Below the pieces are notes generated by a model. It saw only the letters and a program-made list of their open reading frames with translations, did no database searches and was not told the origin of the DNA. Positions 1,777 through 10,403 of a DNA stretch of 12,119 bases are shown here, piece by piece. The stretch comes from a virus. Taxonomy: Duplodnaviria > Heunggongvirae > Uroviricota > Caudoviricetes. Location of the stretch: positions 1 through 12,119 of IMG/VR virus record IMGVR_UViG_2698536618_000022. One strand, 5' to 3'. Each line of letters starts with the position of its first letter. Positions within the stretch are counted from its first letter, which is position 1. The translations under genes were made by a program, and so were the position numbers.

Positions 1777-1977
1777 TTACCCATTGGCGCGGCTTAAGAG
1801 CTTATTTTTGAATTCACAATGGTCACGATATAACCATCTTGCTCGCCCGTGGATAACTTTGGCTTTAGGCAGGTCGCCGGACTTAATCCGGTCATAGATG
1901 AAGGTTTTACCGAAGCCAGTATCGGCCATGATGAATTTCAAATCAACCAGTGAATCAGGTTGTAGTTCGTGTTGCAT
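1777..1977 (-). CDS. torI: excisionase / TorR inhibitor TorI (AlpA/Xis-family winged-helix DNA-binding protein)
   Basis: 66-aa ORF MQHELQPDSLVDLKFIMADTGFGKTFIYDRIKSGDLPKAKVIHGRARW...; matches remembered KplE1 TorI; AlpA-like helix-turn-helix core; GGAG SD about 10 nt upstream of the ATG. Confidence 0.85.
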   Translation of the reverse strand: MQHELQPDSLVDLKFIMADTGFGKTFIYDRIKSGDLPKAKVIHGRARWLYRDHCEFKNKLLSRANG

Positions 1978-2274: not shown

Positions 2275-2559
2275 TTATTCATTGCCGATATTCACTTTTA
2301 TCGCGAACACCTTTACCGGTTTATCACCGAAGTGCGGATGTGTGATTGTCTTGATTTCATATCCACCATACGGAACATCAATTCTGCGACTGGAATCGTC
2401 GCGCTTCGGATATCCCTTTGTGATAATCAGGCGGTCATACTTACGGTTAACGAGGCGCTTATTCCAGTAGTCATTACACAGGCGATACTCTTCCGTTTTA
2501 TCTCCGCGAATCATGGCATCGAAGTATTCACCTTTGACGGCAAGTTGTAGGTTAGCCAC
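2275..2559 (-). CDS. ASCH-domain protein (PUA-like beta-barrel), GTG start
   Basis: 94-aa ORF; GDKTEEYR fits the ASCH GxKxxExR signature; AGGAGG SD 6 nt upstream of the GTG; start overlaps the stop of the upstream Ea22-like gene. Confidence 0.65.
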   Translation of the reverse strand: MANLQLAVKGEYFDAMIRGDKTEEYRLCNDYWNKRLVNRKYDRLIITKGYPKRDDSSRRIDVPYGGYEIKTITHPHFGDKPVKVFAIKVNIGNE

Positions 2560-3574
2560 GGTTAACCTCCTGAGGCGGTTCTGGTAGAGGCATCCAGTGG
2601 GTTACATTGCTAATCAGACCATATTCATTAGTTTGAGGATGGTTGCCGCTATCGTCTCCGTATTTAAGACTCTCCATAAAGCCATAATGCCTATCCCCAT
2701 TAACGCTCACAAAGCCGTAATAAGCTGGTATAACGCCGATCTCACACGTAATCAGCAAAGGAAAACTAGTTCTCCAATTTAGCTCGCCGATTACAGGCAT
2801 TCTCTCACTACAGCTTATCCAACCATCCTTAATGCAATTACCTTGACTCTGAAGCATAGCGGCACGACAGGCGTTCCAGCCTCTCACCTCTGCAATAGCG
2901 GCAACAGCATCAACCGCGTACATGCTAAGAGGGTTAGGCATTGGTTTTTCTTCCGGTACTACTGGCGATGGCTGTTTGGCTTCTAAATCAGCAATTCTGT
3001 CAACCACGGCATCGACAGCATCTGAAAAACCGAACCAGTTACTCCACTCCGGCCTATCCCCGGTTGCTGCAAAATACATATCAGCCAAAGCAGCCTCAGC
3101 ATGGTCACGCTCGTTGATGAGTTGCTCTTCGCTTTTCTCCAGTTCAGCAATACGCTTACTCCCATCCGAGATAACGCCTTCGTAATACTCACGCTGCTCG
3201 TTGAGTTTTGATTTTGTCTCCTCAAGCTCAACACGCAGTTTCCCTACCGTTAGCGCAATATCCTCGTTCTCCTGGTCGCGGCGTTTGATGTATTGCTGGT
3301 TTCTTTCCCGTTCATCCAGCAGTGCCAGCACAATAGCCGGATTGGCTGCAGCGATGAATTCAGCATTGGCCTGCTGTTCCATTTGGAAATCTTCATCGAA
3401 ACCGCTTTCTGGATGCGCTCCTTCAATTCTGCAAATGGGAATATATCCAGCAACTTCACGATGAATTAGCGCATCATCACCATCAAATCGGCTCTCTCCA
3501 TATTCGAGCGACCACTCACCACACGTTGCTTTTTCTGCCGCTTCACGCAGTGCCTGATAGTCAATCTTGCTCAC
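2552..3574 (-). CDS. Ea22-like early protein: N-terminal Ead domain, central coiled coil, C-terminal DUF551-like domain
   Basis: 340-aa ORF; N-terminus MSKIDYQALREAAEKATCGEW and motif IAAANPAIVLALLDE are typical of lambda Ea22-family proteins; GTG start with GGAG SD. Confidence 0.75.
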   Translation of the reverse strand: MSKIDYQALREAAEKATCGEWSLEYGESRFDGDDALIHREVAGYIPICRIEGAHPESGFDEDFQMEQQANAEFIAAANPAIVLALLDERERNQQYIKRRDQENEDIALTVGKLRVELEETKSKLNEQREYYEGVISDGSKRIAELEKSEEQLINERDHAEAALADMYFAATGDRPEWSNWFGFSDAVDAVVDRIADLEAKQPSPVVPEEKPMPNPLSMYAVDAVAAIAEVRGWNACRAAMLQSQGNCIKDGWISCSERMPVIGELNWRTSFPLLITCEIGVIPAYYGFVSVNGDRHYGFMESLKYGDDSGNHPQTNEYGLISNVTHWMPLPEPPQEVNRG

Positions 3575-3815
3575 TGGTTGACTCCTGCTTCTCTGCCTTC
3601 AACACCATGCGAGAACCATCATCCAGCCCCCACGCGATCTCACCACCTTCAGCCATGACCAGTCGCCACACCAATTGAGCAGCCTCATTGGTAACATCAC
3701 GACCTGGATCATTGCCAACGCGCATACATCCACCTTCAACATCGCGCATTTTTGCCAGCATGATAGTTTTTGATAGCGGTGAAAAACCAAGCTGTAGTCG
3801 TGCTGAATTACTCAC
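3561..3815 (-). CDS. hypothetical protein (84 aa), GTG start
   Basis: ORF with GGAGG SD upstream of the GTG; start region ggaggcaaccaGTGag is near-identical to that of the Ea22-like gene; overlaps neighbouring genes as in coupled phage operons. Confidence 0.5.
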   Translation of the reverse strand: MSNSARLQLGFSPLSKTIMLAKMRDVEGGCMRVGNDPGRDVTNEAAQLVWRLVMAEGGEIAWGLDDGSRMVLKAEKQESTSEQD

Positions 3816-4119
3816 TGGTTGCCTCCTTTGCTGGGCTTTCTAACTTCTGAGTGGTTGTATCAAACTCAAACAACTTAACCACGTCATCAAACAGGACATA
3901 ATCGCCATCAGAATCTTCAGTCATGTCAGCGCCACAATCCTGACCGAACGAGTCACAACCATCCATATCAAGCTCGTATCGCTTGAGTTTTGCGATATTT
4001 GATAAATTCAGCGCCAGTACAGCAAGGTCATAAACCTCATCAGCGGTATACCCGGCACCATGCCCATACATTTCAATACGGGATATGATTTCTTCTACAC
4101 GTTGTTTTGTGATCGTCAT
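3808..4119 (-). CDS. hypothetical protein (103 aa), acidic C-terminal half
   Basis: ATG with GGAAGGTGAG SD; ATGA start/stop overlap with the upstream gene. Confidence 0.6.
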   Translation of the reverse strand: MTITKQRVEEIISRIEMYGHGAGYTADEVYDLAVLALNLSNIAKLKRYELDMDGCDSFGQDCGADMTEDSDGDYVLFDDVVKLFEFDTTTQKLESPAKEATSE

Positions 4120-4598
4120 TTTTGCTCACCTTCCTGTTCTTCCAGAAAAATACGCATAGCCTCAAGCATCTCTTCGGTGTCATACGGTGGCAACTTGTCA
4201 CGCAGGATGTGTTCAATGCTGTTAATGAACTTGCGGATTGCTTTGCGTTCAATTTCAGCCAGGAAAGCGTCGGTGGCTGGGGTTTCCGTGAAGTTGTCCT
4301 CCCAACCGTAGTACTCCTGACGACAGAAGTTATTAAATTCCTTCTCCGACTGTTTAAGCTCCGCATTCTCTGCTGCCAGCGCCGAAAACTTCTCGTGTGC
4401 CAACTTAACAGCTGCATCAGCCTGCTTAATTGACTCAATCGCTTTCTGGTGGTCTTCGTACAGAGCCGAAATCTTGGCCTCCGCTTCAGCAAATTTACGC
4501 ACCAGATATTCAGCGTTTGTTTCGTTAACCTTTAAATCATTTGGGATGCATTTACCTTTCAGAAATCCATCCATCTCAATTAGTGACATTTGTTTCAT
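4116..4598 (-). CDS. hypothetical coiled-coil protein (about 160 aa from the ATG at 4598; track ORF extends to a GTG at 4616)
   Basis: long helical, heptad-like sequence ([47 protein letters not shown]); ATG at 4596-4598 overlaps the stop of the upstream ORF (ATGA). Confidence 0.6.
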
Positions 4599-4759
4599 TT
4601 CTTCCCACTCCGCCACATCGCATTCAGATATTTGTTTTGATTCACTGACGGAAAAGAATTTCTCTTAAGCAATTCCTCTCTCGATGGCATTGGCTTTACG
4701 CGTTGGCGAATAATCATTTCTGCCGGAAGAATGCCGGGATTGTATGCAAGTCCTCTCAT
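4595..4759 (-). CDS. hypothetical small protein (54 aa)
   Basis: ATG at 4757-4759 preceded by GAGGAA SD at 7 nt; the longer track ORF (to 4912) overlaps the neighbouring gene out of frame and is probably an artefact. Confidence 0.4.
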
Positions 4760-4769
4760 GGTAAATTCC

Positions 4770-5066
4770 TCAGTCATTACTGATAGCGCCATAGCGTGAG
4801 CGGTAATTACGCAGGCGCGGGTCGATATATTCAGGGAAGTGGGTATATGTGGCTTTGCGGAATGGTCGGATTGATGTCTGGTAAATTCGCTCGCGTTCTT
4901 CTTTCTCTGCAAGCCATATACAGTGGCGAAATTCCTTTTCCTCTTTTGTTTCCTGCGGTAGCGACATTATCCGGTCGTAGTTTTTTCTGAATTTATCCAG
5001 CACCTCCGATACGGAATTGCCGGAACAGCGGCGCGGGTCATCCGCACCATACAGAGGCGCTGGCAT
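4770..5066 (-). CDS. hypothetical basic protein (98 aa)
   Basis: ATG with AAGGAT SD; occupies the position directly distal to the ssb/erf recombination module. Confidence 0.55.
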
Positions 5067-5089
5067 AATGGAATCCTTATTTTGCTACT

Positions 5090-5473
5090 TTAGAAGGGAA
5101 TTGAATCGTCGTATTCAGGAGTGTTCTGCTGGTTACTACTTTGCTGCTGCGGGCCATTTCCTGAAGTTGCAAATCCAATCTTTGCATTCAGTAATTCAAG
5201 AGTGATTGATTGACCATTTTGCCCCTGATAAACATCAACCCTGATGTTTTCTCCGGTAATTTCCACAATGCCACCTTCAACAAGAACACTACGGTAGTAA
5301 TCAGCTTGCGCTCCCGGCTTGGCAAATACAACGGCGCTGTAGTTTGTCCATTCTTTCTTTTTTGTCTGGCGGTCGTAATACTGAACGCCAGCACGGATAT
5401 TGAATCCGATATTTTCACCGGCCTGAAACTCTCTTGCGGGTTTGTTTAGTCTTACTGTAATCGAATGTGCCAT
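5090..5473 (-). CDS. ssb: single-stranded DNA-binding protein-like (OB fold, C-terminal tail ...PEYDDSIPF)
   Basis: 127 aa from MAHSITV; C-terminal DDSIPF resembles the E. coli SSB tip DDDIPF; Gly/Gln-rich linker before the tail; start overlaps the erf stop (TAATG). Confidence 0.65.
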   Translation of the reverse strand: MAHSITVRLNKPAREFQAGENIGFNIRAGVQYYDRQTKKKEWTNYSAVVFAKPGAQADYYRSVLVEGGIVEITGENIRVDVYQGQNGQSITLELLNAKIGFATSGNGPQQQSSNQQNTPEYDDSIPF

Positions 5474-6078
5474 TAAGCTATTGCCCCTTCTAATTCGTCT
5501 CGTCTGATGTTGTAAACGTCCTGCGCTTTGTGCTGCTCCGGTGTGCCTTCGAGCATCTTCCATGCTTTGGCGAACGCCTGTTTAAGCTCTTCTACGGTGT
5601 TTTTCTGCATTGCTGCGTCAGTGAATGCTTTTAGAACCTGTTCAGGTGTAGGTAATGGTTTTGATTGCTTTGCTGCTGCGTTCTGCTGATGTTTATGCTC
5701 GTCTGTATCTGCATCTTTCGCATCATCAATGCCGAACAAACCATTGAGGCAATACTTTCGTGCATAAGAGCTTGTAGCTCCCGTAACTTGTGCAGAATCC
5801 ATTCCTTTCTTGCTTTCTTCCTCTCGTGCAAGAGCGGTTGCCGTATGACTGTTTTCGCCATCGGTAATAGTTGCCGTGGCTTTCACGTAATACCGATCAC
5901 CAATCAACACAACTTCATCGCTGATTGATAAAAACAGACCATTCAGTAGCGGCTTAACGCTTTCAAGAATATCTTCGCAGCTTCTGTATTTATATTTACC
6001 GAATGAGTTGTACTGATTTTTGGGCGCATTCAGATTCTCCTGAATGGCTGCCAGTCTTGCGTAAAATTCTTTGCTCAT
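5473..6078 (-). CDS. erf: Erf-family single-strand annealing recombinase (P22 essential recombination function)
   Basis: MSKEFYARLAAIQENLNAPKNQYNSFGKYKYRSCEDILE... matches remembered P22 Erf; start taken at the ATG at 6076-6078 (the track ORF starts at an upstream TTG at 6108). Confidence 0.85.
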   Translation of the reverse strand: MSKEFYARLAAIQENLNAPKNQYNSFGKYKYRSCEDILESVKPLLNGLFLSISDEVVLIGDRYYVKATATITDGENSHTATALAREEESKKGMDSAQVTGATSSYARKYCLNGLFGIDDAKDADTDEHKHQQNAAAKQSKPLPTPEQVLKAFTDAAMQKNTVEELKQAFAKAWKMLEGTPEQHKAQDVYNIRRDELEGAIA

Positions 6079-6179
6079 ATGTTTGTTCTCAGAATGGACA
6101 CGGCCCAAGGAAATAACGCTGGTTTAATACTTCGACTCGTGACAAATTAAGGCATACCCGCATTCCTTCGCGGTCGCCA

Positions 6180-6338
6180 TTATGGCGATACCAGAGAGCT
6201 TTCTGCGTGTACATGCGTCTCTGTAACTTGCTCTCCTTCACTGTGGTTGCAAGTGACATAAATATCTCCTTCGTTACCGATTAATTCTTTCATCTGACGA
6301 ATGAATTCTTCGTCTGACCAGTTATCTGTAAAACTCAT
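6180..6338 (-). CDS. small protein (52 aa) in the position of P22 arf (between erf and kil)
   Basis: ORF MSFTDNWSDEEFIRQMKELIGNEGDIYVTCNHSEGEQVTETHVHAESSLVSP; ATG overlaps the kil stop (ATGA); assignment by position only. Confidence 0.4.
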   Translation of the reverse strand: MSFTDNWSDEEFIRQMKELIGNEGDIYVTCNHSEGEQVTETHVHAESSLVSP

Positions 6339-6457
6339 TTCCTGCGATACCATGGAAGGTTGATAGCTGATTTCATCGCTTTATTTGCTTCAAGCCACAT
6401 TTTGGAATCACCAATAAATCTGGCTATTACTGCTTTGTTCTGTGCTGCACGAAGCAT
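6335..6457 (-). CDS. kil: Kil-like host-killing/cell-division inhibitor peptide (40 aa)
   Basis: MLRAAQNKAVIARFIGDSKMWLEANKAMKSAINLPWYRRK; the FIGD-x-KM motif resembles lambda Kil as I recall it; sits immediately downstream of cIII as in lambda and P22. Confidence 0.5.
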   Translation of the reverse strand: MLRAAQNKAVIARFIGDSKMWLEANKAMKSAINLPWYRRK

Positions 6458-6471
6458 CTGGTGATTGATGG

Positions 6472-6606
6472 CTATTTCATTGCGCATAACGCCTCCAGTT
6501 GTTTCTTTGCTGCTCTGATTAATTGTTTAACTCGGCGTGATAATTCAGATTCGTGCGGGTAGAAAGCGGACATGACGCCGCTACCCGCGAGCTGAAAGTG
6601 CATCAT
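6472..6606 (-). CDS. cIII: CIII-like regulator (FtsH/HflB inhibitor that stabilises CII)
   Basis: start taken at MMHFQLAGSGVMSAFYPHESELSRRVKQLIRAAKKQLEAL with AAGGAG SD 6 nt upstream; this aligns with the lambda CIII core as I recall it (...IAGWPVAGCPSESLLERITRKLRDGWKRL). Confidence 0.7.
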   Translation of the reverse strand: MMHFQLAGSGVMSAFYPHESELSRRVKQLIRAAKKQLEALCAMK

Positions 6607-6681
6607 GGGTAACTCCTTATATTTGATTGCATAACGAAAATGCCTCTCGTGAAGCATTATTGGTATGCGGTAAAGCCGCGC

Positions 6682-7050
6682 TCAGGCGGCTTTGATAGTC
6701 ATATCATCTGAATCAAATATTCCAGATGTGTCGATATCGGTAATTCTTATTCCTTCGCTACCATCCATTGGAGGCCATCCTTCCTGACCATTTCCATCAT
6801 TCCAGTCGAACTCACACACAACACCATATGCATTTAAGTCGCTTGAAATTGCTATAAGCAGAGCATGTTGCGCTAGCATGATTAATACAGCATTTAATAC
6901 AGAGCCGTGTTTTTTGAGTCTGTATTCAGAGTCTGACCAGAAATTATTAATCTGGTGAAGTTTTTCCTCTGTCATTACGTCATGGTCGATTTCAATTTCT
7001 ATTGATGCTTTCCAGTCGTAATCAATGATGTATTTTTTGATGTTTGACAT
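6682..7050 (-). CDS. hypothetical protein (122 aa)
   Basis: ATG with GAGGA SD; preceded on its transcript by a strong intrinsic terminator. Confidence 0.6.
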   Translation of the reverse strand: MSNIKKYIIDYDWKASIEIEIDHDVMTEEKLHQINNFWSDSEYRLKKHGSVLNAVLIMLAQHALLIAISSDLNAYGVVCEFDWNDGNGQEGWPPMDGSEGIRITDIDTSGIFDSDDMTIKAA

Positions 7051-7243: not shown

Positions 7244-7348
7244 TCACTCTTCTACGCGGTCAGCTTTTCTATAATTATCAAATTCGAAATGTTTAATTAC
7301 TTCTTTCGTTTCTCGCTCTATAACTTCAACGATGTATTTCTTATTCAT
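7244..7348 (-). CDS. hypothetical small protein (34 aa)
   Basis: ATG overlaps the stop of the upstream Ead-like gene (TAATG); MNKKYIVEVIERETKEVIKHFEFDNYRKADRVEE; no independent SD, coupling only. Confidence 0.3.
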   Translation of the reverse strand: MNKKYIVEVIERETKEVIKHFEFDNYRKADRVEE

Positions 7349-7644
7349 TACTCATCACCTATGGCTTTTTTGATAGCTTCGAGAGCCTTATTAACAGCTC
7401 CATACCATTCTGGATATGTTGTCGTTGTTCTATTTTTGGATTGCTTAAGTAATAACTGAAGTGCTTCGAGAAGGTCAGGTGCTGCCGCTATTAGATTGGC
7501 ATCTTCAATACATTGAACTTCCTCACAGATTGCAATATACGAACGCCAGCCTGCGCCATTTTCAAGTGAGTCTGCCTGGATGATTTTAATCTCATTGCCA
7601 TCCATCATTATTTCCCACTTACCTTCAGTACCTTTAAATTCCAT
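7348..7644 (-). CDS. small Ead/Ea22-motif protein, paralog A (98 aa)
   Basis: contains IAAAPDLLEALQ and KALEAIKKAIG motifs shared with the ORF at 8285-8545 and with the Ea22-like N-terminal domain; SD AGAGG inside a repeated 30-bp linker. Confidence 0.65.
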   Translation of the reverse strand: MEFKGTEGKWEIMMDGNEIKIIQADSLENGAGWRSYIAICEEVQCIEDANLIAAAPDLLEALQLLLKQSKNRTTTTYPEWYGAVNKALEAIKKAIGDE

Positions 7645-7683: not shown

Positions 7684-7884
7684 TCAGGCAGCCTTGTTAT
7701 TCTGTTTACCAAGTTCTCTGGCAATCATTGCCGTCGTTCGCATTGCCCATTTATCGACATATTTCCCATCCTCCATTACAGGAAACATTTCTTCAGGCTT
7801 AACCATGCATTCCGATTGCAGCTTGCATCCATTGCATCGTTTGAATTGTCCACACCATTGATTTGTATCAATAGTCGTAGTCAT
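7684..7884 (-). CDS. ral: Ral-like restriction-alleviation protein (66 aa)
   Basis: MTTTIDTNQWCGQFKRCNGCKLQSECMVKPEEMFPVMEDGKYVDKW... matches my memory of lambda Ral, including length 66 aa; Cys cluster; AGGA SD. Confidence 0.7.
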   Translation of the reverse strand: MTTTIDTNQWCGQFKRCNGCKLQSECMVKPEEMFPVMEDGKYVDKWAMRTTAMIARELGKQNNKAA

Positions 7885-8284: not shown

Positions 8285-8545
8285 TCAATCGTAATAATCT
8301 TCACCAATAGCTTTGCTAATTGCTGACAGTGCTTTCGATACTTCATCAGGATAATGGTCATTCCAGCTTTGCTTGTATGCCTTGTTTAGCATCGCTTGCA
8401 GAGCTTCAAGCAAATCAGGAGCTGCCTCCATCAATCTCAAATCACCACGATGTATGGTTGTATCGTCAAACGTGACATAAACACCATCATCGTTGAATCC
8501 AGTGCCAACAACACTCCACGGCCTTTTCATTCTTTCTACGGTCAT
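8285..8545 (-). CDS. small Ead/Ea22-motif protein, paralog B (86 aa from the ATG at 8545; the track ORF starts at a GTG at 8551)
   Basis: shares MEAAPDLLEALQ and KALSAISKAIG motifs with paralog A; preceded by DR2 copy 2. Confidence 0.6.
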   Translation of the reverse strand: MTVERMKRPWSVVGTGFNDDGVYVTFDDTTIHRGDLRLMEAAPDLLEALQAMLNKAYKQSWNDHYPDEVSKALSAISKAIGEDYYD

Positions 8546-8550
8546 ATCCA

Positions 8551-8580
8551 CCTCTGTTGTTTATGCCAAAAATAAAGGCC
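8551..8580. repeat. 30-bp direct repeat DR2, copy 2
   Basis: identical to 7650-7679; followed by the minus-strand hairpin GGCCGC-ATAA-TCGGCC with a T-rich tail (terminator-like). Confidence 0.85.
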
Positions 8581-9752: not shown

Positions 9753-10403
9753 TTATGGAAGGTTTGCTAGTTTTGCATCGACAACTACGCCGATGATTTT
9801 GCAGTTTCCGTTGATCTCGATCATCGGATATTGTGGGTTAAGTGGTTTTAGAAACTTCCTGCCTGCATCAATAACTAACTTCTTGAAAGTTGCCTCGTTT
9901 TCTCCTTCGAGCTTTGCAACTACCAGTTTCCCGTTACGCGGCTCTACTTCAGGATCGACGAGTATTATCATTCCTTCAGGGATACTGAGACCGGCCGGAG
10001 CCGTCATTGAGTCTCCCTTCACGTCCAACCAAAACGAATCTTCTGAACAGTCTACGGTTGTATCGTACCAGTTATCTATTGCACGCTTATGATATGGTTC
10101 CACAGCTTCCATCCAGCATCCTGCGCTCACCCAGCTAATCAGAGGGTATGACCCTCTTGGATCATGCCTACTGTGATAGGCAATGTTTGAAAGACTTTCC
10201 TCTCCTTTCATCAGATAGTCAGGGGAACACTTCAACGCATTAGCCAGGGCGAGAAGATTCTCTCCATTTGGCTCTGTCTCAGAGCGTTCCCACTGAGATA
10301 TGGCAACATTAGACACGCCGACCATCTTTCCAAGTGCGGCCTGCCTGATCTTGAGTTCTTTTCTCCGAGCGCGAATGCGCTCTCCCATCAATTGAGTTTT
10401 CAT
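9753..10403 (-). CDS. c2: CI-type prophage repressor, P22 C2-like (HTH plus LexA-like S24 autopeptidase domain)
   Basis: 216 aa; MKTQLMGERIRARRKELKIRQAALGKMVGVSNVAISQWERSETEPNGENLLALANAL... matches remembered P22 C2; GDSM serine motif and VVAKL lysine of the S24 catalytic dyad. Confidence 0.95.
   Translation of the reverse strand: MKTQLMGERIRARRKELKIRQAALGKMVGVSNVAISQWERSETEPNGENLLALANALKCSPDYLMKGEESLSNIAYHSRHDPRGSYPLISWVSAGCWMEAVEPYHKRAIDNWYDTTVDCSEDSFWLDVKGDSMTAPAGLSIPEGMIILVDPEVEPRNGKLVVAKLEGENEATFKKLVIDAGRKFLKPLNPQYPMIEINGNCKIIGVVVDAKLANLP

Follow-up and report, generated by a model that had tools for sequence, protein, structure and literature searches.

The window analysed here, a stretch of 12,119 nt of Caudoviricetes DNA (IMG/VR record IMGVR_UViG_2698536618_000022), holds a block of five minus-strand ORFs between positions 3561 and 5066, all of which were present at these coordinates when the window sequence was checked. 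The block opens with abc2, encoding anti-RecBCD protein 2 (98 aa, 4770–5066, ATG start), followed by a small basic DUF2737 protein (54 aa, pI 11, 4595–4759, ATG start with GAGGAA 7 nt upstream), an acidic 160-aa protein of a mosaic EaE/gp37-related family (4116–4598, ATG start), a protein of 103 aa whose C-terminal half is acidic (3808–4119, ATG start) and a DUF7446 protein of 84 aa (3561–3815), whose GTG start follows AAGGAGG. From abc2 onward, the junctions consist of a 10 nt gap, two ATGA overlaps and an 8 nt overlap, while the end of the 84-aa ORF overlaps the next gene (start at 3574) by 14 nt. This next gene (2552–3574, minus strand) likewise has a GTG start, is translationally coupled to the block and encodes an Ead/Ea22-like protein of 340 aa with a DUF551 domain (PF13935, 3.1e-40; PF04448, 6e-12). 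The tight coupling of the five ORFs and their early-left location, both noted in the preliminary description of this DNA, prove correct. Since each ORF matches a PHROG family with E ≤ 5e-32, we consider all five to be genes and not chance ORFs. On the minus strand, the motif AACCAGTGAG was found at two junctions, at 3811–3820, where its GTG serves as start codon of DUF7446, and in a second copy at 3570–3579, where its GTG starts the Ead/Ea22-like gene. Neither promoter-like nor terminator-like sites were found on this strand between 2560 and 6200, and an Rfam search of the window gave no match. The P22/HK97-like prophage that holds the block is adjoined by cscB of E. coli.

The 98-aa ORF can be assigned as Abc2. 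Its match to the Pfam family PF11043 (Anti-RecBCD_p2; 4.3e-62, 206.8 bits at a cut-off of 25) spans the full length, with protein residues 1–98 aligned to profile positions 1–97 of 97, and is accompanied by a match to phrog_656 'abc2 anti-RecBCD' (7.8e-57). Identity to P22 Abc2 amounts to 93% over the full length, and RefSeq names the product 'phage anti-RecBCD protein'. In P22, Abc2 contacts RecC of RecBCD near the Chi-recognition domains, with residues 3–66 forming the RecC-binding helices and Pro68 engaging host PpiB (PMC9836394). The window protein, which matches PDB entry 8b1t_A with 1.4e-56, shows two differences in residues 1–66 and keeps Pro68; binding of RecC is predicted for it from this homology. 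The preliminary description had placed the block where P22 carries abc1/abc2, which proved right, the 98-aa ORF being Abc2 itself. Its statement that no motif could be assigned in any of the ORFs has to be given up, since the 98-, 54- and 84-aa ORFs correspond to Abc2, DUF2737/P22 orf56 and DUF7446, respectively.

Abc2 is encoded on the same early-left strand as two further recombination genes. Directly upstream lies the gene for an SSB of the HK97 gp40 type (127 aa, 5090–5473, minus strand; phrog_44 SSB, 1.7e-28), which ends in DDSIPF and is 93% identical to HK97 gp40, the 127-aa form being the one in databases; gp40 was named 'SSB-1b' from its predicted fold (PMC12315714). It is preceded by erf, encoding a single-strand annealing recombinase (5473–6108, minus strand; Pfam ERF, 5e-44) with 98% identity to HK97 Erf and 75% to P22 Erf. 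Because the alignment with P22 Erf begins at 6078, the true start of erf is probably the ATG at this position. As judged from these similarities, Erf, the gp40-type SSB and Abc2 constitute a complete recombination module of the HK97/HK75 type, which has been described previously (PMC12315714). The block is consequently not distal to the recombination module, as had been proposed, but contributes its third member with its first gene. In HK97 the order of erf, gp40, abc2 (gp39), gp38 and gp37 is the same as in the window, with identities of 98% (Erf), 93% (gp40), 95% (Abc2) and 94% (gp38), whereas gp37 shows merely 43% identity to the 160-aa ORF. P22 Abc2 (PF11043; PDB 8b1t, 8b1u) resembles the window protein in its length, bar one extra residue, and in its pL position after the recombinase; however, P22 has abc1 where the window has the gp40-type SSB. 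No homologue of P22 Abc1 was found in the window (tblastn, E ≤ 0.01), and the presence of Abc1 or Arf was rejected, neither having a homologue there. Since full activity in P22 depends on Abc1 and Arf (PMC9836394), the workings of the module may differ from those of P22 in detail. The remaining window presents a standard early region with genes for a cI-like repressor, a P22-type Cro, CII, O, Ral, cIII and Kil.

The 54-aa ORF matches Pfam family PF10930 (DUF2737) with 2.6e-31 and 107.7 bits (cut-off 25), residues 1–52 aligning with positions 1–52 of 53, and retains the core motif ending in NKYL. Its homologues comprise P22 orf56 (75% identity), HK97 gp38 (94%) and HK620 hkaI. DUF2737 was located downstream of abc2 in all 79 IMG/VR loci of sufficient extent, and the phage collection holds nearly equal numbers of records with near-full-length Abc2 (224) and near-full-length DUF2737 (223).

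For the third ORF, an alternative GTG start at 4616 would give a protein of 166 aa, while RefSeq annotates 160 aa and residue 1 of most homologues aligns with residue 1 of the 160-aa form. The ORF matches phrog_614 (3.9e-64, residues 2–165) and, partially, phrog_368; P22 EaE aligns over 55 residues only, and residues 76–126 of the 166-aa form show 56–58% identity to it. Many of the 608 representative relatives match the N-terminal, middle or C-terminal segment alone, and the alignments thus characterise the family as hyper-mosaic within the gene; the window protein is the sole member of its 90%-identity cluster. For the coiled coil that the preliminary description ascribed to this protein, the support consists of weak compositional matches to coiled-coil families. 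An Ead/Ea22 paralogue was considered for this ORF and rejected, as PF13935 is not matched and comparison with the adjacent Ead/Ea22 protein by BLASTP yields E = 3.

The 103-aa ORF belongs to phrog_3126 (9.2e-67) and has no match in Pfam. The acidic character of its C-terminal half, as described earlier, is confirmed by 16 D+E vs 3 K+R in residues 51–103 (pI 4.05). Relatives fall into 267 protein clusters, with Escherichia and Salmonella as named sources, and the protein is carried by phages Sf101 and IME10; its own cluster has 562 members and an alignment of 20 sequences contains 34 invariant columns. The 84-aa ORF matches PF24233 (DUF7446; 1.9e-17, 63.3 bits, cut-off 24.1), with residues 7–78 aligned to positions 2–69 of 70, as well as phrog_1578 (4.6e-32). 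DUF7446 homologues from Escherichia, Salmonella, Citrobacter, Enterobacter, Klebsiella and Hafnia share at least 76% identity, with 42 invariant columns among 22 sequences from several genera. The family is also carried in unrelated prophage contexts, and the cluster of the 84-aa protein has 327 members. Because both families are narrow, at least 76% identical, the alignments available for AlphaFold2 were shallow, and the resulting models are too poor for use, with a mean pLDDT of 52.9 for the 103-aa protein (20 homologues) and 48.9 for the 84-aa protein (22 homologues).

The distribution of the genes differs strongly over the block: of 80 IMG/VR loci with Abc2, 79 carry DUF2737, 52 carry an orf160-like gene, 9 carry orf103 and 4 carry orf84. 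The complete five-gene set was found in a single one of 5426 complete E. coli genomes. This genome is that of E. coli 19KM2326N (NZ_CP151038.1), in a prophage of which all five genes occur in the same order with 98.3% DNA identity to the window and RefSeq calls them anti-RecBCD, DUF2737 and three hypothetical proteins; upstream, however, this prophage carries a Rad52/Rad22-type recombinase and a canonical SSB in place of Erf and the gp40-type SSB. In the 'ea' region of P22 (orf56, eaE, orf45, eaF, eaD and others), orf56 is the counterpart of the 54-aa ORF, while EaE and EaD match the 160-aa and 340-aa ORFs in segments only and the 103- and 84-aa ORFs have no counterparts.

We therefore propose that the block very probably represents the promoter-distal portion of the uninterrupted early-left (pL) operon of a P22/HK97-like lambdoid prophage, consisting of abc2 and four accessory genes. 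To the observed gene identities, arrangement and distribution, the literature on Abc2 adds a mechanism: by homology to P22, Abc2 would attach to the host's RecBCD enzyme at its RecC subunit, close to the domains that recognise Chi, and would abolish the Chi response with the helicase still running, so that resected DNA is thought to be redirected to the phage recombinase. Abc2 would then act as one recombination module with the Erf and gp40-type SSB encoded upstream. The DUF2737, EaE-like, phrog_3126 and DUF7446 genes would represent dispensable-looking accessory genes akin to the 'ea' genes of P22, transcribed together with abc2, coupled to it in translation and shuffled among phages as cassettes. 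The practical value of this reading lies in a corrected annotation, in which the recombination module reaches to position 4770 and the unknown part comprises four genes. As a discovery it carries little weight: Abc2 has been characterised and the structure of its complex solved, the module type is known and the accessory families are catalogued and occur in many enterobacterial genomes. Only the fixed pairing of abc2 and DUF2737 and the recurring junction motif are mildly new, and the near-invariance of this pairing and the unusual conservation of DUF7446 can serve as leads.

It had been suggested that genes of this block serve host takeover or counter-defence. This stands for Abc2, by its homology to a characterised protein, while for the other four genes a host-directed role is something we only infer. 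A more specific version, in which the genes past abc2 specifically serve counter-defence or host takeover, with the acidic half of the 103-aa protein, for instance, acting as a DNA mimic of the Ocr/ArdA kind that blocks restriction or another DNA-binding defence, is possible but doubtful. It is consistent with the setting, as this variable accessory region already holds a known counter-defence gene and regions of this sort are enriched in anti-defence genes (bioRxiv 10.1101/2023.04.06.535777), with the excess of acidic residues in positions 51–103 and with the very high conservation of DUF7446 over genera and unrelated prophage types. Acidity by itself, however, is weak evidence, and the model of the 103-aa protein, at its low pLDDT, is unusable for showing a mimic-like fold. 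PADLOC and NCBIfam returned no meaningful match for the five ORFs, and profile and sequence searches of the PDB with the four accessory proteins gave nothing below E = 0.1, which further argues against such a role. The same holds for two phage accessory-gene screens, in whose supplements we searched for exact N-terminal strings: the four accessory proteins are absent from the gene lists, Abc2 is the sole block protein among the synthesised genes, and a genome table mentions DUF2737 just as an annotation. Literature searches on DUF2737, DUF7446 and DUF2856 returned nothing relevant, the name 'EaE' has many unrelated uses, and the HK620 gene names led only to a filamentation screen, the hit region of which also contains kil.

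The constancy of the abc2-DUF2737 pairing invites the further reading that DUF2737 partners Abc2 functionally as a second component of RecBCD take-over, perhaps replacing the absent Abc1, which would make the module one gene longer. We regard this as unlikely. The gene does lie 10 nt past abc2 in all of the 79 IMG/VR loci and in 8/8 contigs with divergent alleles, the pairing recurs in P22, HK97, SE1 and an Stx2a phage and is kept behind Erf or Rad52 with SSB alike, and the window has no Abc1. However, P22 has both Abc1 and orf56, and the DUF2737 core (residues 23–49) is also found in about 480 records, mostly of virulent Jerseyvirus and Kagunavirus, whereas searching for Abc2 yielded no more than 232 records, predominantly temperate Salmonella, Escherichia and Stx phages; in the two Jerseyvirus records examined, no abc2 is annotated near DUF2737. 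The two proteins also diverge in an uncoupled manner, with identities to the window of 63% for Abc2 and 93% for DUF2737 in the Stx2a phage as opposed to 93% and 75% in P22, and the pair can be separated by a DUF5405 gene, while in some loci an HNH endonuclease gene is inserted at its 3' end. Moreover, Murphy, Fenton and Poteete are said to have traced the Abc phenotype of P22 in 1987 to abc1 and abc2 only, which counts against a partnership.

A 25-residue core of DUF2737, including NKYLN-x-MW, is common to temperate lambdoid/P22-like and virulent Jersey-like phages. It is also improbable, in our estimate, that DUF2737 is a small host-targeting peptide carried in a fixed two-gene cassette with abc2 in temperate lambdoid phages, where it may modulate the activity of RecBCD or of a sensor of its inhibition, or that the 103-aa protein or DUF7446 is an undescribed anti-defence factor. 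That the distal 160-, 103- and 84-aa ORFs are functionless, decaying mosaic remnants, as their patchy presence (52, 9 and 4 of 80 loci), the mosaicism inside the 160-aa gene and the prophage nature of the host element might suggest, is scarcely credible against three intact, translationally coupled ORFs with good ribosome-binding sites, full-length PHROG profile matches, the invariant columns of DUF7446 (42) and the 103-aa protein (34) and the sizeable clusters that include these two (327 and 562 members, respectively). Only the 160-aa protein is single in its 90% cluster.

At the far end of the early-left region, xis and int of HK97 follow directly after gp37, while the window adds the genes for the 103-aa protein, DUF7446 and the Ead/Ea22-like protein with DUF551. 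Absence of an integrase could be taken to indicate a defective prophage, which we did not accept, the terminal 66-aa gene being TorI. In elements of the KplE1 type the integrase is located at the opposite prophage end, and the window, unlike HK97, has an excisionase of the TorI type.

The five ORFs of the preliminary description were all found on the minus strand within the stretch it gave (3561–5066), namely at 4770–5066 (98 aa), 4595–4759 (54 aa), 4116–4598 (160 aa), 3808–4119 (103 aa) and 3561–3815 (84 aa), and the junctions proved as tight as it had claimed. The 98-aa ORF is separated from the 54-aa ORF by a 10-nt gap with GAGGAA inside, ATGA overlaps join the 54-aa to the 160-aa and the 160-aa to the 103-aa ORF, the 84-aa ORF overlaps the 103-aa ORF by 8 nt with its GTG start preceded by AAGGAGG, and the following 340-aa gene (2552–3574) overlaps the 84-aa ORF by 14 nt, again with a GTG start. 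Each ORF matches a PHROG family (E ≤ 5e-32), and the exact sequences of all five products are present in public protein collections. All five are real genes. In a consensus scan, no minus-strand promoter-like or terminator-like site was found in 2560–6200, the earliest terminator-like hairpins lying at 2273–2252 and beyond, so that the five genes share a single unbroken segment of the pL operon.

The lambdoid prophage early region follows the plus-strand cscB (1–1248). Its left operon on the minus strand comprises a cI-like LexA-family repressor (9753–10403), Ral (7684–7884; PF11058, 1e-47; 77% identity to P22 Ral), a DUF2528 gene in the same operon as ral (6682–7050), cIII (6472–6657), Kil (6335–6487) and Erf (listed ORF 5473–6108), while P22-type Cro, CII and replication protein O are encoded on the plus strand. 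ral is a known anti-restriction gene. The listed erf ORF starts too far upstream, since the alignment to P22 Erf begins at 6078 (ATG, MSKEFY...). For the SSB-like gene, too, the listed ORF (5090–5563, 157 aa) is too long at its 5' end; translation from the ATG at 5473, which shares one base with the erf stop codon, gives 127 aa.

The first gene of the block encodes Abc2. Its 98-aa product matches Pfam Anti-RecBCD_p2 over the whole length (4e-62), phrog_656 'abc2 anti-RecBCD' and the Abc2 chain of PDB 8b1t/8b1u (1e-56), is 93% identical to P22 Abc2, and compared to the PDB chain shows only two substitutions in residues 1–66, with Pro68 kept. Abc2 leaves the RecBCD helicase unblocked and renders the enzyme unresponsive to Chi, with Pro68 engaging host PpiB, and it has been proposed to redirect the single-stranded DNA product of RecBCD to Erf (PMC9836394). 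The window contains no Chi site (GCTGGTGG), which is uninformative with only 0.17 expected. Directly upstream of abc2, the 127-aa protein (5090–5473) is an SSB, 93% identical to HK97 gp40, which was classed from its predicted fold as a diverged SSB, 'SSB-1b' (PMC12315714). Anti-RecBCD protein, SSB and annealing protein, without nuclease, constitute the HK75 functional type, reported for 27 of 325 phages (PMC12315714). As Abc2, SSB and annealing protein match this described type, the first gene of the block closes the recombination module; the earlier view of the block as distal to this module therefore fails for abc2, which is the module's last gene. No homologues of P22 Abc1 or Arf were found within the window.

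The 54-aa ORF can be assigned to DUF2737 (PF10930, 2.6e-31) and encodes a small, basic protein (pI 11), 94% identical to HK97 gp38 and 75% to P22 orf56. We assessed linkage in 80 IMG/VR loci with an Abc2 98–100% identical to that of the window, counting a gene as present if the match covered at least half of it. DUF2737 was found in 79 loci, the remaining one ending just past abc2, compared to 52 for a relative of the 160-aa ORF, 47 for upstream Erf plus gp40-type SSB, 9 for the 103-aa ORF and 4 for the 84-aa ORF. Divergent DUF2737 alleles (77–83% identity) lay 10 nt past abc2 in all eight contigs examined, a pairing kept behind Erf and Abc1, Erf and gp40, or Rad52, SSB and exonuclease. DUF2737 also follows abc2 in HK97, P22, SE1 (Abc2 67% identical) and a Stx2a phage (63%), and in a phage collection near-full-length Abc2 and DUF2737 occurred in 224 and 223 records, respectively.

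Three observations nevertheless argue against an obligate partnership of the two genes. Firstly, a 25-residue DUF2737 core (P...NKYLN.MW), also present in proteins of 51–58 aa from virulent Jersey-like and Kagunavirus phages, gives partial matches in about 480 further phage records, mostly virulent Jerseyvirus and Kagunavirus, whereas the Abc2 search returned 232, with temperate Salmonella, Escherichia and Stx phages dominant. In the two Jerseyvirus records inspected, the core genes (L093, 1107–1283; L094, 3441–3596) are located in a group of small genes between those for lysin and terminase, and neither record annotates an abc2 close to them. Secondly, the two proteins diverge independently, Abc2 and DUF2737 being 63% and 93% identical to those of the window in the Stx2a phage, versus 93% and 75% in P22. 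Thirdly, other genes intrude at this neighbourhood. In about a quarter of the 80 loci, an insert of ~290 bp separates abc2 from DUF2737; L007, the one such locus inspected, has there (5297–5595) a ~95-aa ORF, probably corresponding to the gene annotated as DUF5405 by RefSeq in similar genomes, and its DUF2737 ORF ends after 40 codons. In some related loci (L084–L090, around 4164–4790), an HNH_3 endonuclease gene overlaps the DUF2737 3' end, with a short DUF2737-like remnant beyond. The pairing of abc2 and DUF2737 is one of two residual leads. The DUF2737 family itself is narrow: a collection of 5.8 billion proteins contains 139 of its clusters (90% identity), and among the matches listed all named ones are from Escherichia, Salmonella or Shigella.

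The 160-aa ORF matches phrog_614 (4e-64), is 43% identical to HK97 gp37 and has a 55-residue segment in common with P22 EaE (56–58% identity). Many of its 608 representative relatives from an exhaustive search match only residues 1–50, only the middle or only 101–160, at 80–95% identity, indicating a family that is mosaic within the gene, so that the product is best described as a predicted EaE-like mosaic protein. In most relatives, the alignment pairs the first residue with that of the 160-aa form, so that the ATG at 4598 is a likelier start than the GTG at 4616. All eight IMG/VR loci with the full-length form carry the 103-aa gene, which is also present in one locus without it. The 103-aa ORF belongs to phrog_3126, a narrow family (267 clusters) without a Pfam match, and its C-terminal half is markedly acidic by composition, as had been noticed. 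The 84-aa ORF is a DUF7446 member (PF24233, 1.9e-17), with identities of 76% or more among six genera of enterobacteria. DUF7446 adjoins a TraF_2 gene in a Salmonella locus and occurs in Enterobacter prophages that also carry a family-A DNA polymerase and a TIR-like gene; these unrelated contexts indicate independence of abc2 and erf. Conserved DUF7446 is the second residual lead. In three Enterobacter loci (L102–L104, 2463–3740) it lies close to a CAP12-PCTIR TIR-like-domain gene, with the polymerase and a SNF2 helicase nearby.

The 54-, 160-, 103- and 84-aa proteins gave no meaningful match in PADLOC, NCBIfam or PDB, our literature search found no paper discussing DUF2737 or DUF7446, and AlphaFold2 models of the 103- and 84-aa proteins (mean pLDDT 53 and 49) were too low in confidence for a meaningful fold search. 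The surroundings of abc2 are a recognised accessory region, and genes located there interact with the defences of the host; P22 abc1, for instance, triggers a P4-encoded abortive system (bioRxiv 10.1101/2023.04.06.535777). Exact N-terminal strings of the four proteins were absent from the genes synthesised in that study and from the PMC12373910 supplements. Our best guess, from position, conservation and precedent, is that all four serve as early accessory proteins that the phage can dispense with and that are directed at targets in the host or in competitors. The preliminary description had rightly recognised the position of the P22 abc genes, but its five unknown genes include abc2 and two members of named families. 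Identical genes already bear the names 'phage anti-RecBCD protein' and 'DUF2737 family protein' in RefSeq, and the finding was known before. The full five-gene combination occurs in one of 5426 complete E. coli genomes, there behind a Rad52-type recombinase, while parts of the region occur in 1994; no phage record covers 80% of it.

The last prophage gene before cscB encodes a 66-aa protein (1777–1977, minus strand), named TorI by RefSeq in an equivalent genome, and neither an integrase nor a tRNA gene lies between the two (1249–1776). In KplE1/HK620-type layouts attP is located between xis and int, leaving the integrase at the opposite prophage end, an arrangement which the end observed here presumably fits. 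The missing integrase need not reflect a deletion. Further upstream in the pL operon, two minus-strand paralogues of 98 aa (7348–7644) and 88 aa (8285–8551), both without a Pfam match, are 41% identical over 64 residues and have AAPDLLEALQ in common; the shorter one weakly resembles P22 orf78.

At two successive gene junctions (3811–3820 and 3570–3579, minus strand) we observed the same 10-mer, AACCAGTGAG, with a ribosome-binding site ahead and its GTG as start codon. The 80 abc2 loci contain 46 copies of it on the gene strand, against ~0.6 expected, and none on the opposite one; these counts are not independent, as the loci are related. Every occurrence opens an ORF, mostly Ead/Ea22-like genes (MSKIDYQ or MSEINYQ start), DUF7446 and a few others. 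The motif looks like a common cassette boundary for accessory-gene exchange. Because it is common to the junctions, unrelated upstream proteins end in similar C-terminal tails (..TSE, ..TSEQD).
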